Shown one piece after another: positions 4,339-55,258 of a DNA stretch of 64,000 bases. The notes under the pieces are model-generated. The model saw nothing but the letters and a program-made list of their open reading frames with translations, had not been told where the DNA came from and made no database searches. Each line of letters opens with the position of its first letter. The first letter of the stretch is position 1. The stretch spans positions 1 through 64,000 of the forward strand of contig CAWCVB010000010.1 in assembly GCA_963798915.1 (NCBI GenBank), given 5' to 3'. This DNA comes from an uncultured Gemmatimonadales bacterium. GTDB taxonomy: Bacteria; Gemmatimonadota; Gemmatimonadetes; Gemmatimonadales; GWC2-71-9. A program made the position numbers and the translations under genes.

Positions 4339-4960
4339 AATCCGCGGGTGGGGTCGGGTAGGCACCGGCGCGCGGGCCGGGTATCGCGTGGCCATCCGCG
4401 GGCGGGGTCGGGTACGTACCGGCGCGCGGCCGGGTATCGCGTGGCCATCCGCGGGCGGGGTCGGGTACGCTACCGGGCGCGCCGGGCCGGGTATCGCGTG
4501 GCCATCCGCGGGCGGGGTCGGGTACGTACCGGCGCGCGGGCCGGGTATCGCGTGGCCATCCGCGGGCGGGGTCGGGTACGTACCGGCGCGCGGGCCGGGT
4601 ATCGCGTGGCCATCCGCGGGTGGGGTCGGGTACGTACCGGCGCGCGGGCCGGGTATCGCGTGGCCATCCGCGGGTGGGGTCGGGTACGTACCGGCGCGCG
4701 GGCCGGGTATCGCGTGGCCATCCGCGGGTGGGGTCGGGTACGTACCGGCGCGCGGGCCGGGTATCGCGTGGCCATCCGCGGGTGGGGTCGGGTACGTACC
4801 GGCGCGCGGGCCGGGTATCGCGTGGCCATCCGCGGGTGGGGTCGGGTACGTACCGGCGCGCGGGCCGGGTATCGCGTGGCCATCCGCGGGTGGGGTCGGG
4901 TACGTACCGGCGCGCGGGCCGGGTATCGCGTGGCCATCCGCGGGTGGGGTCGGGTACGTA
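4339..4960. repeat. 54-bp tandem array, about 11.5 units, next to the RAYT
   Basis: Unit CCGGGTATCGCGTGGCCATCCGCGGG(C/T)GGGGTCGGGTACGTACCGGCGCGCGGG; no variable spacers. Confidence 0.95.
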
Positions 4961-9002: not shown

Positions 9003-9040
9003 TCCCTCTCTCCTCTGGTCAGCGACTGATGCCAAACATA

Positions 9041-9158
9041 GACGGGAAGACGGGAAGACGGGAAGACGGGACGTAAGGCAGGAGGGCGGGAAGACGGGAA
9101 GACGGGAAGATCTGGCGGAGTCACGCTTCCCGCCTTCCCGGCTTCCCGTCTTCGCGTC
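9041..9158. repeat. 8-mer array (GACGGGAA)n with an inverted arm
   Basis: 9041-9110 direct; 9126-9158 (CTTCCCGN)x4 inverted, encoding the hybrid kinase C-terminus. Confidence 0.9.
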
Positions 9159-11968: not shown

Positions 11969-14254
11969 TCACGGGCTGGCCGGAATCTTCCAATCGTAAA
12001 GGGCACGGTAGAAATCCATGTTCCGCTGGATGATGCGCACGTAGTCCCGCGTTTCGGCGTAGGGAATCCGCTCGGCGAAGACTTCGGCGTCGGCGGCTCC
12101 CGTCTTGCCCTTCCAGCGCTCCACCCGGCTGGCGCCCGCGTTGTACGCTGCCAGGATCTCCACCGCCGTATCATAACGGTCGCTCAGTTCGCCCAGATGC
12201 GCCATGCCCAGCTCGAGGTTGACGTCCGGTTCGTACAGCAGGACGGCGTCCCAGATGGGATAGCCCAGTGCGCGGGCCACGCCATGGCCGACCGATGGCA
12301 TGAGCTGCATCAGGCCGCGGGCGCCAGCGTGCGAGAGCGCCGACGGAGTAAAGTTGGATTCCTGCCGGATCAGGGCCGCCGCGAATGCCGGGTCCACCTT
12401 GCGCCGCGCCGCTTCGGCCAGCAGCGCCGAGCGGTGAACCACGGGATAGAGCAGGCGGTACGTCCGGGCGTCACGGCGCGCGCCGGCGGCAATGGCGCGC
12501 CAGGCCAGCCGCATGGCCCTGGACGCCTCGTCGGCCTGACGCAGCGCCGCAGCGACCGCCAACAGGCGCTCGACGTCGTCGCTCGCCTCTGCCGACAGCA
12601 CGCCCAGCTCCCAGCGAGCTTCACGGTCCATGCCCAGGCGCCGGAGCAGCGCCACGCGTGACAGGGTGCTGTCCACATCGGGAACGGCGACAAAGCGATC
12701 GGCTGCTTCGGCTGGCGCCCACGGCGCAAGCTCCAGTCGCCGGCTGGCGAGTGCCCCGTAATAGTCCAGGGTGTCGCGCGCCGCGCTGCGCCAACGATCT
12801 CGCGCCGCGGCTGAGTCGCCGACCTGGGCCCAAGCGCGCCCGGCCCAGTAGCGCGCCGCCTGCGCTTCGGTACTGGCACCAGCGGCTCCGGCCAGCCTGT
12901 CAAGTTCGGTCGCGGCAGTCCGTGCATGGCCGCTCACCAGCGCAATAATGGCGGCCCGAAAGGCAGATTCGGGCGCGAGACTGGCGCGGGGATAGCGCTT
13001 GACGATGGTGAGAAAGGCATCCCGCGCTGCCTCATCGCGATCTTCATCCGTGGCGAGATCGCCGAGCAGAAAGAGCGCCGTCGCGGCGGGCTCGGTTTCG
13101 GACGGGAAGTCGCGCAACAGGTCACGCAGCGCGTCCCGGCCCGCTTTGAGCTGGCCTTCGCGCACCAGCGCCCGGCTGCGCTGGTATGCAGCCGAGGCGG
13201 CAAGGCTGGCCGGCGCTTTCACCCGGGCAAATTGGGCCGCAGCCTCGGCATAGCGGCCGAGGGCGAAGAGGGCCCTGCCGTACTCCCATCGGTCGCGGGA
13301 TCCGCCCAGTCCGGCGCCCAGTGCATGGCGATAGGCATCAGCGGTACGGCGAGCCGGCCCTCGTGGGGCGAGCGCACGACCCACATCGAGCTCCAGCTGG
13401 GTACTCAGCGGGGCGTAGCCAGCGTCGAGAAGCTCCACTGCGGCGCCAGCTCGCGCGGTCCCGGGTGCGGACTTGATGACATGAACCAGTTCGGTGCGGA
13501 GTGAGTCGCGATCCTCGCGATGCCGTGGCGTGAGTGCAAGCCGGATCTGCCACGACTGGGCATAGTCGCCAGCAGCCGCGTACGCTGCGACTGCCGCCGC
13601 TGAATCGCCGCTGCGCTTGAATCCATCGGCCCGGCCTACGGCCAGCTGCTGGCGCACCACGGGGCTGGCCAGCTGCTGGAATCGCGCTCGCCGGGTGCCG
13701 CTGTCGCGCGTCACGATGGCGGCGCGGTACATGAGCCAGTCGTGAATGGCCGGCAGGCGCTGGGCGGCGGCCGCATAGGCATCGGCTGCAGGCGTGAGTG
13801 AATCGAGCCGATCCAGGGCGCGCGCGAGGATCACCTGGCGCTCGGCCCGGCTCCGGTCATCCGATGCGGTGGCGACCGCACGGCCTGCCGCATCCGCTGC
13901 CGCCGAGTCGGCGCCGGTCTCGAGGAGCGCGCGGGCCAGCAGGGCGCGGCCTTCGCCGTTCCCATCATCAAGCCACGATTCCCCCCGCAACATGTCGCGC
14001 ACGGTCGTCCAGCCGCCCCAGCGGCTGGCCGCCACCGCGGCAAGCAGTGACACCTCGGGGGTCCGGCGCGCCGTGTCGGCGAGCACCGCCGCGAGCAGCC
14101 GGCTGGCGTGCCAGGGCTGGCCCCGGTCCAGCGCCGCGCGCGCCCGATCGATGGTGCTGTCGGTCGCCGCGGCGATCATCCGGTCCACCGATGGAGTCAC
14201 CATCGGGACCGGAAGGGGACAGAAGAGCGCCAGGGAAAGCGAGAAGAGGATCAT
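11969..14254 (-). CDS. slt: Soluble lytic transglycosylase with TPR-like repeats
   Basis: IRQESNF, GLMQLMP, AYNAG, ETRDYV; signal peptide. Confidence 0.9.
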   Translation of the reverse strand: MILFSLSLALFCPLPVPMVTPSVDRMIAAATDSTIDRARAALDRGQPWHASRLLAAVLADTARRTPEVSLLAAVAASRWGGWTTVRDMLRGESWLDDGNGEGRALLARALLETGADSAAADAAGRAVATASDDRSRAERQVILARALDRLDSLTPAADAYAAAAQRLPAIHDWLMYRAAIVTRDSGTRRARFQQLASPVVRQQLAVGRADGFKRSGDSAAAVAAYAAAGDYAQSWQIRLALTPRHREDRDSLRTELVHVIKSAPGTARAGAAVELLDAGYAPLSTQLELDVGRALAPRGPARRTADAYRHALGAGLGGSRDRWEYGRALFALGRYAEAAAQFARVKAPASLAASAAYQRSRALVREGQLKAGRDALRDLLRDFPSETEPAATALFLLGDLATDEDRDEAARDAFLTIVKRYPRASLAPESAFRAAIIALVSGHARTAATELDRLAGAAGASTEAQAARYWAGRAWAQVGDSAAARDRWRSAARDTLDYYGALASRRLELAPWAPAEAADRFVAVPDVDSTLSRVALLRRLGMDREARWELGVLSAEASDDVERLLAVAAALRQADEASRAMRLAWRAIAAGARRDARTYRLLYPVVHRSALLAEAARRKVDPAFAAALIRQESNFTPSALSHAGARGLMQLMPSVGHGVARALGYPIWDAVLLYEPDVNLELGMAHLGELSDRYDTAVEILAAYNAGASRVERWKGKTGAADAEVFAERIPYAETRDYVRIIQRNMDFYRALYDWKIPASP

Positions 14255-14289
14255 GGTGTTCCGGGCGGGTGCGGAAGTACAATGCAAGC

Positions 14290-14712
14290 ATGCGCGACGA
14301 CGCAAAGGATCCAACGTCCGGCCCGCAAGCACCGGGCCGCACCCGGCTCGATCAGTGGCTCTGGGCTGCGCGATTCTTCAAGACGCGGACTCTTGCCGCC
14401 AACGCCGTAGCGGGAGGCAAGGTCGAGCTCAACGGCCGGCATGCGAAACGCGCGGCAAGCGTACGCCCTGGAGATGAACTGCGGATACGGCTGGGGCCTT
14501 TCGAACACATCGTGCTGGTGCGTGGTGTCGCCTCCCGCCGTGGACCGGCAAGCTCGGCTGCGCTGCTCTACGAGGAAACGGCGGCGAGCCGCGAGGCGCG
14601 TGAACGGCTGGCCTGGCAGCTCAAGCATGCCCCTGCCCCGCTTACCTTCGAGGAGAAGGGCCGGCCGACGAAACGGGATCGGCGGAGGATCGAAAAGGAG
14701 AGGGGCCGGTAG
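14290..14712 (+). CDS. hslR: Ribosome-associated heat shock protein Hsp15 (S4 domain)
   Basis: RLDQWLWAARFFKTR, GRPTKRDRR. Confidence 0.92.
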   Translation: MRDDAKDPTSGPQAPGRTRLDQWLWAARFFKTRTLAANAVAGGKVELNGRHAKRAASVRPGDELRIRLGPFEHIVLVRGVASRRGPASSAALLYEETAASREARERLAWQLKHAPAPLTFEEKGRPTKRDRRRIEKERGR

Positions 14713-14753
14713 ACGGCGACGGTCGACGGTCGACGGTCGACGGTCGACGGTCG
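14712..14753 (+). repeat. Heptamer array (GACGGTC)x5-6
   Basis: Directly visible; inverted partner at 15181-15206. Confidence 0.95.
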
Positions 14754-14820
14754 CGCGAATATGCTGCCGGATGCGGCGATCCGGTCCTCTCGCTCTCGCC
14801 TGCATGTCCTACAGTGAGGC

Positions 14821-15204
14821 ATGGGAAACTACCGCGCGCTCGACGCCTGGCAGGCCAGTCGCACCTTGGCCGGGCTCACGTACCGGGCGACGGAGCGGTT
14901 CCCGCCTGCCGAGCGCTACGGCCTCACAGCCCGGATGCGACGCGCCGCGGTCTCGATCATGTCGAATATCGCCGAGGGAGCGGGTCGATGCAGCGACGCC
15001 CAATTCCGTCCCTTCCTGCAGATTGCTCGCGGCTCTCTCCATGAACTCGAAGCCCAGACCATCCTGGCGAGCGACCTGGCATTCGGCAGCGAGGCTTCAC
15101 TCGCCGAACTGACTGAGGCGACCCGCCAGACGGCCCGACCCCTGCACGGCCTCCTCCGCTCACTGAAGAACGCCCACCAGCGACCGTCGACCGTCGACCG
15201 TTGA
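14821..15204 (+). CDS. Four-helix-bundle protein (23S rRNA IVP / Avd-like family)
   Basis: YRALDAWQ, FPPAERYGLTARMRRAAVSIMSNIAEG, IARGSLHELE. Confidence 0.93.
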   Translation: MGNYRALDAWQASRTLAGLTYRATERFPPAERYGLTARMRRAAVSIMSNIAEGAGRCSDAQFRPFLQIARGSLHELEAQTILASDLAFGSEASLAELTEATRQTARPLHGLLRSLKNAHQRPSTVDR

Positions 15205-15206
15205 CC
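15181..15206 (-). repeat. Inverted heptamer array (GACCGTC)x3.5 containing the stop codon of the four-helix gene
   Basis: CGACCGTCGACCGTCGACCGTTGACC. Confidence 0.9.
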
Positions 15207-15207
15207 T

Positions 15208-16515
<1,308 letters not shown>

Positions 16516-16531
16516 GGGGGAAAGTAATGCC

Positions 16532-16568
16532 GTAGGGGCCCGGCTCGCCGGGTCCGGCAAGCCGGGCC
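16532..16568. repeat. GTAG-type REP-like hairpin
   Basis: GTAGGGGCCCGGCTCGCCGGGTCCGGCAAGCCGGGCCC. Confidence 0.55.
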
Positions 16569-16608
16569 CGGACTTGCGCATCCCCAGCCCATTCCCCACA
16601 TTGTCGCC

Positions 16609-23862: not shown

Positions 23863-23880
23863 CTCAGTAATAAGATAAAG

Positions 23881-24008
23881 CGTCGACAGTCATCGGTCTA
23901 CGGCCGACGCCAGCCGTTGACCGTCGACCGTTGACCGTCGACCGCTGCCGTCCACCGTCGACCGTCGACCGTTGACCGTTGACCGTCGACCGTCGACCGT
24001 CGACCATC
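23881..24008. repeat. Heptamer array (GACCGTY)x~13 with a short opposite arm
   Basis: Same unit as the arrays flanking the four-helix-bundle gene. Confidence 0.92.
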
Positions 24009-44632: not shown

Positions 44633-45262
44633 TCACCGTATGTCCAACATGTGGCGCAACTTGGCCACGGTTGCAGGGCCAATGCCCGGAACGTTCGTCA
44701 GGGCCTCGATGCTCGCAAACGGCCCATGCGACTCGCGATACGCCACAATTGCAGTCGCCCGGCCAGGTCCGAGTCCCGGCAATTTCGCTAACTCGTTTGC
44801 GGACACAGCGTTCACATTAAGTGACCGAATCTGGGACGTTGCAGGCCCAGGTACAACTTTTGGCGCGGGTATGCCCGAAAACCGGACATGCCCGGACAGA
44901 CGGTCGAGCAGCGAGGGTCCGACGCCCGGCACCTGGTCCAGGCGCTCGATGCCGCCAAAGGCACCGTGAGCCTCGCGATACTCGACCAGCCGCCGGGCGA
45001 GGCCCGGGCCAATCCCGGGGAGGCGAGCCAGCTGGGCAGCCGGCGCACGATCCAGATCGATCAACTCGCCCTCGCGGAGCGGGGCGGCGGCCGCTCGAGC
45101 GCTGTCACGGTGTGCGAGCGCCGCGGCCGAGTCCCCACCGGGCCCACCCAGGAGCACGATGCTGCCCGGAGCGTCGCCAGGATCGAGGATCAAGGTGCGC
45201 ACCGCCTGCCCCGCCACCGCCAGCCCGACGAGCAGGAGCACGGAACGGTATTCAGGGGCCAT
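44633..45262 (-). CDS. comEA: ComEA-like helix-hairpin-helix DNA-binding protein (two HhH pairs)
   Basis: LPGIGPGLA, VPGVGP, LPGLGPGRA, VPGIGP; N-terminal TM. Confidence 0.85.
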   Translation of the reverse strand: MAPEYRSVLLLVGLAVAGQAVRTLILDPGDAPGSIVLLGGPGGDSAAALAHRDSARAAAAPLREGELIDLDRAPAAQLARLPGIGPGLARRLVEYREAHGAFGGIERLDQVPGVGPSLLDRLSGHVRFSGIPAPKVVPGPATSQIRSLNVNAVSANELAKLPGLGPGRATAIVAYRESHGPFASIEALTNVPGIGPATVAKLRHMLDIR

Positions 45263-45339
45263 GACGGCAATGTCGGGCAGGAAGGAGCGGAGGGTGGGAT
45301 CGGGAAAACGCGGGGAGGGGCGAAACAGGCCGGGCGTCT

Positions 45340-45434
45340 GTAGGGGCGGCCTGCGGCCGCCCATTGACATCCCGATGCCAGTCGAGCGGCGTGGGGACCG
45401 CGATGTAAGGGGGGCGGCCGCAGGCCGCCCCTAC
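45340..45434. repeat. Inverted GTAG REP doublet (REPIN-like)
   Basis: GTAGGGGCGGCCTGCGGCCGCCC at 45340-45362 and reverse copy at 45412-45434. Confidence 0.85.
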
Positions 45435-45505
45435 AATGACCTGTTGAGATCCCGACGCCTGCCGTCTCCACGGCCCATCCGTCCGTCTGTCCGCCTGTCC
45501 ATGTC

Positions 45506-54059: not shown

Positions 54060-55135
54060 TACGCCTGCTTGATCGGTACCTGCTCGGTTCGTGGATCAAG
54101 CTGTTCATTGTAACCGCCATCGGCTTTCCGATCGTGGCCGTGGTCACCGAAATGATTCAGGAACTCCATGACCTGCTGGGCCGAGGGCTGACGCTGCGCC
54201 AGGTTGCGGTCAGCTACGTGTTCGGGATTCCCGCCTGGGCGTCGCTGGTGATGCCGGCCGCTGTCCTGTTCGCCACCATTTTCACGGTGGGCAACATGGC
54301 GCGCCATTCCGAGCTCACCGCGGCCAAGGCAGGCGGCGCGAGCTTCCATCGCCTGGTCCGACCGCTGTTCCTCGCCTCGCTGGCAGCATCGGGCCTCGCA
54401 ATCCTGGTGGGCGAACTGGCCGTGACAGCCTCTGCCCGGCAGGCGGATATGCAGAAGGCATCTGCCCTGGTCAATTCCGGCTCACGCTTCAACTTCGTCT
54501 ACCGCGCCAACCTCGGCTGGATCTACACCATCCGCGCGCTGGATGTCGCCTCGCATACACTGCGTGAGCTGGTGCTGGAGCGGGCCGGTACCGGTGATGA
54601 TTACCCGACGCTGGTCATTCGTGCCGACAGCGCCACCTGGGCGGATTCGTCGGCCCAGTGGACGCTCTGGAACGGCCAGAGCCGGGTACTGGGAGACGCC
54701 GGCCGCCTGGCCACGTTCGGCTTTGCCACCATGCAACTGGCGGCCTTCTCGCAGGATCCGTCCGAACTTCTGCTCAAGGACAAGGCGCCCCAGGCGATGC
54801 GCTACGCCGAACTCGGCCGATACATCGAATCGATGCATCGCGCCGGCAACCCGACCGGCGAGCTCGAGGTCCAGCGTGCCCAGCGCATCGCGATCCCGAT
54901 GGCCTGCCTGGTCATCGCGCTCTTTGGCGCCCCGCTGGCGATGGCCGCTCCGCGCTCCGGCACCGCCTTCGGCATCGGCGTGAGTCTCGCGGCCACGGTC
55001 GTCTACATCCTGCTCTCCCAGATTGCCACAGCAATGGGCGACAGCAACTTCCTGAGCCCCACCCTGCTGGCCTGGCTGCCCAACGCGCTGTTCCTGATCG
55101 CGGCGCTGGTGTTGCTGGACCGGGTGAGGTCGTAG
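54056..55135 (+). CDS. lptG: LPS export permease LptG
   Basis: MIRLLDRY, SELTAAKAGG, AWLPNALF; ATGA overlap. Confidence 0.88.
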   Translation: MIRLLDRYLLGSWIKLFIVTAIGFPIVAVVTEMIQELHDLLGRGLTLRQVAVSYVFGIPAWASLVMPAAVLFATIFTVGNMARHSELTAAKAGGASFHRLVRPLFLASLAASGLAILVGELAVTASARQADMQKASALVNSGSRFNFVYRANLGWIYTIRALDVASHTLRELVLERAGTGDDYPTLVIRADSATWADSSAQWTLWNGQSRVLGDAGRLATFGFATMQLAAFSQDPSELLLKDKAPQAMRYAELGRYIESMHRAGNPTGELEVQRAQRIAIPMACLVIALFGAPLAMAAPRSGTAFGIGVSLAATVVYILLSQIATAMGDSNFLSPTLLAWLPNALFLIAALVLLDRVRS

Positions 55136-55258
55136 GGGTTGGGGAATAGGGGTTGGGGAATAGGGATAGGGGAACAGGGGTTGGGAGAAGCGGAAAGGGC
55201 CGAAGCTCACCTCGAGCTCCGGCCCTTCCCTAACCCCTAACCCCAATCCCTAGCCCCT
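55134..55258. repeat. G-rich heptamer arms around a hairpin between convergent genes
   Basis: GGGGTTG/GGGAATA units at 55134-55186; hairpin 55195-55227; CCCCTAA-like units at 55228-55258. Confidence 0.85.

Follow-up and report, generated by a model that had tools for sequence, protein, structure and literature searches.

The closest described counterparts of the element analysed here are the intervening sequences (IVSs) of 23S rRNA genes, as found in Leptospira and in helix 45 of Coxiella, whose open reading frames (ORFs) belong to the S23p/IVP protein family. To our knowledge, no function has been assigned to this family since 1993, apart from that of its cousin Avd. Intergenic arrays of tandem 7-mers are known from cyanobacteria as STRR, and RAYT/REP systems combine dispersed extragenic hairpin repeats with a gene flanked by inverted copies of the repeat. 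The Coxiella IVS is described, in the accessible text of PMC4990558, as a 428-nt sequence with a 28-bp stem and an S23p ORF, excised by RNase III and carrying, ahead of the S23p start, tandem heptamers that vary in copy number. Intergenic tandem heptamers have also been reported in Xanthomonas and Nostoc (Rehm et al. 2015, PMC4692102). In Xanthomonas, 70-75 convergent array pairs are able to form stem-loops, and the terms "S23", "four helix" and "intervening" do not occur in the accessible part of that article. Finally, as far as the accessible parts of the two sources go, the S23p/IVP family is homologous to the Avd protein of DGRs (PMC10053308), and Avd is a pentamer that binds stem-loop RNA (bioRxiv 10.1101/2023.10.23.563531).

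We analysed a window of 64,000 nucleotides, positions 1-64000 of contig C10, in an assembly of 3.31 Mb and 17 contigs with a completeness of 84.8% (genome G000). The ~0.5 kb between the hslR-like and icd genes of this window are best read, with a probability of about 0.72, as a self-contained cassette, one of eight in the genome, that is the free-standing counterpart of the ORF-bearing IVSs of 23S rRNA. The likeness covers the protein family of the ORF, the size (~0.43-0.5 kb), the terminal inverted repeats and the placement of the ORF in the loop of a 26-28-bp stem. Unlike an IVS, the cassette lies between protein-coding genes and not in rRNA, and its arms are long periodic arrays whose unit varies from copy to copy. 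Its ORF is under purifying selection, whereas that of Coxiella is reported to be decaying (PMC4990558, accessible text). The 23S rRNA gene of this genome harbors no large insert; it measures 2971 nt against a model of 2925 positions and gives only three weak rows in a TRF tandem-repeat search, with 2.1-2.9 copies. In the main texts of the literature searched, we found no description of S23p/IVP genes as hairpin-bracketed cassettes outside rRNA.

The cassette between hslR and icd

The left neighbour is an hslR-like gene on the plus strand (14251..14712), coding for an S4-domain protein of the Hsp15 type (Pfam S4, E-value 1.2e-9; the NCBIfam Hsp15 model matches with an E-value of 8.6e-28 but below its cut-off). 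The right neighbour, on the minus strand and thus convergent, is icd (15208..16599), which codes for NADP isocitrate dehydrogenase and matches the NCBIfam equivalog TIGR00183 with 636.8 bits against a cut-off of 567. The spacer is filled from stop codon to stop codon by two arms and a gene, in the order G-rich tandem-repeat arm, leader, S23p/IVP gene and complementary C-rich arm. The 5' arm (14713..14753) comprises one degenerate 6-mer and five perfect heptamers in the GACGGTC register; TRF reports it as 14707-14753, with a period of 7 and 6.9 copies. A leader of 67 nt (14754..14820, plus strand) connects this arm to the ATG, and is conserved in two sister copies of the cassette according to a three-copy alignment. 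The four-helix-bundle gene (14821..15204, plus strand) codes for 127 residues and overlaps the 3' arm (15181..15206), in which TRF finds 3.7 complementary heptamers.

A first-pass annotation, made from the sequence alone, had placed the start of the GACGGTC array at the hslR stop codon, and the TAG at 14710-14712 indeed directly adjoins the array. It had also stated that the inverted array supplies the stop codon of the enclosed gene and abuts icd. Both statements are correct: the ORF terminates at a TGA within the last unit of the right arm, and the icd stop codon (15208-15210, minus strand) is three bases from the cassette. The origin of the in-array stop is, however, derived. Both sister copies end at a TAG located 24 nt upstream, and the three-copy alignment places a CAG (15178-15180) at this position in the present copy. 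Since the ancestral TAG is now CAG, the ORF runs eight codons into the array and its present stop is secondary.

Three tandem heptamer units with at most two mismatches are matched 11 times in the window and 0 times in 100 dinucleotide-preserving shuffles. The same heptamer family forms a gene-less hairpin at 23880..24008, where about four degenerate G-type units (23880-23912) face a C-type array of 13 units (23914-24008, 13.3 copies). The first-pass annotation listed 23881-24008 as an array without a cargo gene. There is no gene, as stated, but the array is not solitary: because a short arm of complementary units stands opposite, it is one side of a short-loop hairpin.

The assignment of the enclosed gene to a four-helix-bundle family, also proposed in the first-pass annotation, is confirmed by two profiles above their cut-offs, PF05635 (E-value 3.7e-30, 104.7 bits, cut-off 33.8) and TIGR02436 (E-value 7e-29, 100.2 bits, cut-off 24), both of which describe S23p/IVP, Avd-like proteins. 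PF05635 is the only Pfam match of the gene. Among solved structures, the only sequence match is Xanthomonas XCC0516 (PDB 2GSC, E-value 5.7e-24), an entry with five chains. The core motif of the family, R-x3-S-x3-N-x2-E, is quoted in the accessible text of PMC3936711 and is present in the cassette protein as R41, S45, N49 and E52. R41, N49 and E52, together with G53, S72 and E75, are invariant across 21 diverse family sequences. The protein is under purifying selection, with dN/dS values of 0.07-0.23 in all but one of 17 close pairs. The remaining pair has only 13 differences; the present copy gives 0.20 and 0.23 against its two sister copies.

Like Avd, to which it is homologous (PMC10053308, accessible part), the gene could be thought to belong to a DGR, either as a remnant or as an accessory that acts as Avd. 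This explanation is barely credible here. The genome, at 84.8% completeness, has 0 RVT_1 matches, and the lack of a reverse transcriptase domain argues that the gene is not part of a DGR. The eight copies are dispersed single-gene cassettes, and no pair of template and variable repeats was noticed around this copy on reading the sequence. What the cassette shares with the Avd of DGRs is a homologous four-helix bundle, pentameric in Avd, which is described as binding stem-loop RNA in the accessible part of its source; it differs in that it consists of one gene between inverted arms of its own, with no reverse transcriptase found.

Array-flanked genes in the genome, the order and other phyla

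TRF identified 590 merged arrays with a period of 6-10 in the 3.31 Mb of the genome, among which 49 pairs are adjacent and inverted. The gap between the two arms is at most 210 bp in 33 pairs, 419-479 bp in 8 pairs and more than 500 bp in another 8. Between 211 and 566 bp there are no gaps other than the 8 at 419-479 bp, and these 8 pairs enclose exactly the eight PF05635 matches of the genome. Pairs with gaps above 500 bp contain no cassettes; they surround ordinary genes or other repeats. Inverted arrays around the paralogs, which the first-pass annotation had put forward as a check, are thus found at 8 of 8 family genes. The repeat units differ between cassettes; the eight cassettes use seven units, which are 7-mers apart from one 8-mer and one 9-mer.

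The hairpins also have a handedness, the G-rich arm coming first and the C-rich arm second when read 5' to 3' on either strand. This order is observed in 30 of the 33 short-loop pairs and in 7 of the 8 cassettes of this genome, as well as in 53 of 69 cassettes of the order; examples in the window lie at 309-549 and 9040-9158.

PF05635 genes are present in 26 of the 31 genomes of the order that were searched, at 0-13 copies each. The flanks are more complementary than in any of 30 shuffles at 82 of the 89 testable loci from these 31 genomes, and a same-strand control passes at 11 of the 89. TRF arrays are located on both sides of the gene at 69 of these loci, on one side at 11 and on neither at 9. 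The period of the upstream arm is 7 at 48 loci, 8 at 16, 9 at 7 and 6 at 2, and the leaders of loci with an upstream array are mostly 60-80 nt long. The family is abundant beyond the order, a query with a six-sequence alignment giving at least 594 confirmed relatives in species genomes. We analysed the best 80 of these at least 594 relatives, 75 of which are testable, and found complementary flanks at 63 of the 75 loci versus 16 of 75 for the same-strand control, with arrays on both sides at 47. The loci include records labelled as Acidobacteriota, Planctomycetota, Bacteroidota, Chloroflexota-type, candidate-phyla and cyanobacterial MAGs. Not every locus shares this layout: complementary flanks are absent at 7 of the 89 order loci and at 12 of the 75 cross-phyla loci. 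Family members borne on plasmids are mostly cyanobacterial. A plasmid survey revealed armed cassettes in Calothrix and in the cultured Gemmatirosa kalamazoonensis KBS708, whose cassette lies on plasmid 1 at about 1,007,583-1,007,933 and has octamer arms; no arms were seen around the copy on a plasmid of Nostoc PCC 7120.

The uniform build of all eight copies in one genome makes this 30-year-old orphan family testable. Discrete cassettes with co-evolving periodic arms also explain the odd intergenic positions of family genes, which are sometimes taken as operon members; a 23S_rRNA_IVP gene located between cmr3 and cmr2 is reported in the accessible text of PMC3936711. The cassette nature of these genes warns against annotating them by guilt by association. 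The cassettes moreover connect the family to the rRNA IVSs and to heptamer arrays, so far unexplained, from several phyla. Like the Xanthomonas and Nostoc arrays, as described in the accessible part of PMC4692102, the present ones are intergenic and built from tandem 7-mers. Those arrays use one unit per genome, whereas 133 canonical units (6-10 nt, mostly 7-9) are found here, and here the arrays bracket a gene.

The abundance of free arrays bears on the proposal of the first-pass annotation that the gene and its repeats form a RAYT/REP-like pairing, in which the four-helix-bundle protein would recognise, spread or maintain the 7-9-mer arrays and the cassettes would be their master copies. We consider this proposal distinctly unlikely. 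The units of 299 of the 590 free arrays are within one mismatch of a cassette unit of the same genome, and units are inherited together with the protein, as the proposal would have it. Own-genome cassette units are nevertheless the best match for the free arrays in only two of four genomes, and 241 of the 590 free arrays here match the cassettes of a sister genome. Array density, which was obtained in 17 relatives from samples of 34-80 kb each, correlates only weakly with gene copy number (Spearman rho 0.45, p 0.06) across 18 related and non-independent genomes. Array density is low, at 0-4.6 per 100 kb, in four genomes with zero copies (G013, G014, G015 and G017), and is 18-47 per 100 kb in the four genomes sampled from the array-rich genus, which contain 8-11 copies. 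Against this trend, G016 and G025 possess 13 and 8 copies but have array densities of only 4.6 and 1.2 per 100 kb, and G022 has no copy but 18.9 arrays per 100 kb, although its units consist of G and C only. The loops of gene-less hairpins contain no gene remnant (no significant similarity). The family is without a known catalytic fold, and the protein is not a Y1 (HUH) transposase, its sole Pfam match being PF05635.

The part of the proposal that stands is that the gene is flanked by a dispersed repeat; there is no Y1 transposase in the pairing, and the coupling to copy number is weak. The resemblance to REP/BIME elements and RAYT is therefore limited to dispersed hairpin repeats and a gene flanked by inverted copies of the repeat, and the cassette differs from them in its four-helix bundle, in periodic arrays with many units and in the weak coupling between gene and repeat numbers. 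Since the multi-copy genomes G016 and G025 are nearly array-free and the correlation is weak, the arms are an intrinsic part of the cassette, and the abundance of free arrays is a trait of the genus. Three Y1_Tnp matches of the IS200/RAYT type are present elsewhere in the genome (C2:384349-384693, C2:342391-342645 and C2:114086-114352), none of them beside a cassette.

Insertion sites and the linkage of arms to gene

Eight congeners have hslR and icd on one contig; in all eight the genes are adjacent and convergent, and the spacer lacks a four-helix-bundle gene. Empty hslR-icd sites, which the first-pass annotation had suggested looking for in relatives, thus exist. As judged by eye, six of the eight congener spacers contain short-loop inverted short-repeat hairpins, whose unit differs in almost every genome; of the remaining two spacers, one contains a plain palindrome and the other a one-armed array.

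These spacers relate to a further explanation, according to which the arrays are ordinary repeat-built 3' hairpins and the gene merely arrived or persisted in one hairpin loop, as a passenger with no functional tie to the arms. The gene-less hairpins of six of the eight congeners, the 33 short-loop inverted array pairs of the genome and the abundance ranks of the cassette units among the 133 free-array units (1, 2, 7, 8, 10, 11 and 21), which place them among the most frequent, are consistent with it. It accounts poorly for the observation that the arms accompany the gene to new loci, and for the recurrence of the layout at 63 of 75 loci in other phyla. Furthermore, free arrays are scarce in G016 and G025 (4.6 and 1.2 per 100 kb, respectively), yet locus L034 of G016 is arrayed on both sides and the flanks of locus L048 of G025 are strongly complementary. 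At C1:49.5k, where this genome has an unrelated palindrome, the cassette of G008 is armed with octamers. A mere passenger is quite improbable. The arms of the present copy in particular could be locally recruited, given that congeners have hairpins at this site and that 299 of the 590 free arrays share units with cassettes.

A total of 86 cassettes from relatives were compared with the present genome through their flanking genes. Sites that are empty here, with both flanking genes present, correspond to 42 of them, and filled orthologous sites to 5; no position could be assigned to 37, and the two flanks of a further 2 map to separate places. The hppA-ychF spacer, for instance, is ~10 nt long here and holds a cassette in G007, G019 and G003. 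The palindrome at C1:49.5k is plain and unrelated to the octamer-armed cassette that G008 has at this site. Cassettes occupy several of the sites in 2-5 genomes, which makes these sites either hot spots or old residents. The gene and its arms are one evolutionary and insertional unit. One and the same site can be filled in one species and empty in another, and the unit has spread to new sites within the genome. No target-site duplication was observed by eye at three pairs of filled and empty sites, the cassette contains no transposase according to Pfam, and no recombinase was found. On these observations it does not qualify as a transposon or a MITE, in the sense of an element that has or derives from a transposase and generates a target-site duplication.

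The copies at C10:14.7k, C10:106.5k and C7:23.8k illustrate this unit. Their proteins are 94.9-97.5% identical (dS 0.08-0.14), and their arms are built from one unit family. The three loci are unrelated, and homology between the copies extends no further than the outer boundaries of the arms. Likewise, L057 and L058, from two genomes, are 92% identical and have a unit common to both at different loci. More generally, the proportion of pairs that share a unit (at most one mismatch) declines with protein identity, from 10 of 11 pairs at 90% or above to 6 of 11 at 75-90%, 22 of 122 at 60-75%, 21 of 801 at 45-60% and 14 of 2139 below 45%. At the orthologous site C3:116k, four genomes have four different units, and both arms agree within each of them. 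The arms thus change sequence quickly but together.

A cassette can lie in either orientation at one site. At C5:154k, L036 and L038 are oriented opposite to L123, L145 and L155. L036 and L123, which are compared across orientations, are 79% identical and have units one base apart, which points to a probable inversion in place between the inverted arms.

The orientation of cassettes with respect to co-directional flanking genes seems to depend on the lineage, and the result is sensitive to the method. Within the order, the ratio of antisense to sense cassettes is 30:9 by a crude method that mislabels the present locus, and 15:2 (39 unclear) or 14:6 (47 unclear) by other methods; it is 2:34 in the cross-phyla set.

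Pairing of the arms and a possible mechanism

Prediction of the RNA fold of 14700-15215 pairs 14721-14746 with 15181-15206, over 26 consecutive bp, in both the minimum-energy and the centroid structures (z -3.06). The suggestion of the first-pass annotation that the arms pair and loop out the gene is borne out by these two folds. Mismatches between the arms that would be G-U wobbles number 218 in the sense versus 180 in the antisense direction, or 33 versus 30 when counted by cassette. The arm comparison contains 363 transversions over 3738 matched positions, and a comparison of duplex energies between the strands gives a Wilcoxon p of 0.19. As no clear strand bias is observed, pairing may be kept in DNA or on both strands. 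A search of public sequencing runs for this DNA gave two DNA runs, each with a 0.05 share of the sampled words, and no RNA run. Signal scans of the cassette revealed no sigma-70 consensus promoter and no canonical terminator, and it has no Rfam match. An alignment of 26 leaders displays a weak T at -7/-6 and a weak A at -10; with signals this weak, a promoter of its own with a leaderless start remains a guess.

We infer that the cassette is transcribed and translated. A read-through transcript from hslR or icd would carry both arms and fold into the 26-bp stem, with the gene in its loop. The stem would then serve both host genes as a 3' hairpin and as an RNase III site, and the insert would be harmless to its neighbours because of this double role. 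The same logic would explain why an IVS is tolerated inside rRNA. At the level of DNA, the inverted periodic arms may offer homology for inversion and for copying into other repeat hairpins, so that no transposase would be needed. The most likely ligand of the Avd-like protein, presumably a pentamer, would be a structured RNA or the stem that the repeats of its cassette form.

A bolder mechanism would give the protein a direct part in this spread. A ring pentamer might read about five tandem units in a lineage-specific manner and drive concerted turnover, inversion and copying, with the cassettes as the masters of STRR-type 7-9-mer arrays. The IVSs of rRNA would then be no more than cassettes that had inserted into rRNA, and the cassettes would represent a novel type of mobile element, one that has no transposase and spreads by repeat homology. 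We hold this to be unlikely.

Array frames are also observed around sequences other than the four-helix-bundle gene. In the window, inverted nonamer arrays (309-391 and 516-549) surround a 124-nt structured element, which recurs in array loops at C2:93.5k, C2:335k and C2:496k. A second family of structured loop elements, of ~100 nt, is found at C1:122k, C1:143k, C5:37k and C2:500k. Array frames thus hold cargo besides the four-helix-bundle gene. At C1:114068-115498, an inverted heptamer pair encloses long tandem repeats and a 100-aa ORF that looks, by its sequence motif, like a small GIY-YIG protein; at this site the relative G001 has a four-helix-bundle cassette, L031. The spacer at ~45262-45505 of the window contains a pair of ~30-nt GC-rich repeats and short degenerate arrays, and no four-helix-bundle gene. 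Flank mapping assigns to it a cassette of G008 (L150) and a four-helix-bundle locus of G003 without complementary flanks (L171).

Two further repeats of the window may be mentioned. At 55133-55258, 3.8 copies of a 14-mer (TAGGGGTTGGGGAA) stand opposite 4.6 copies of CCCTAAC, and the units of both arrays look telomere-like. A 54-bp tandem repeat occupies 4340-4960, with 11.5 copies and 97% matches.
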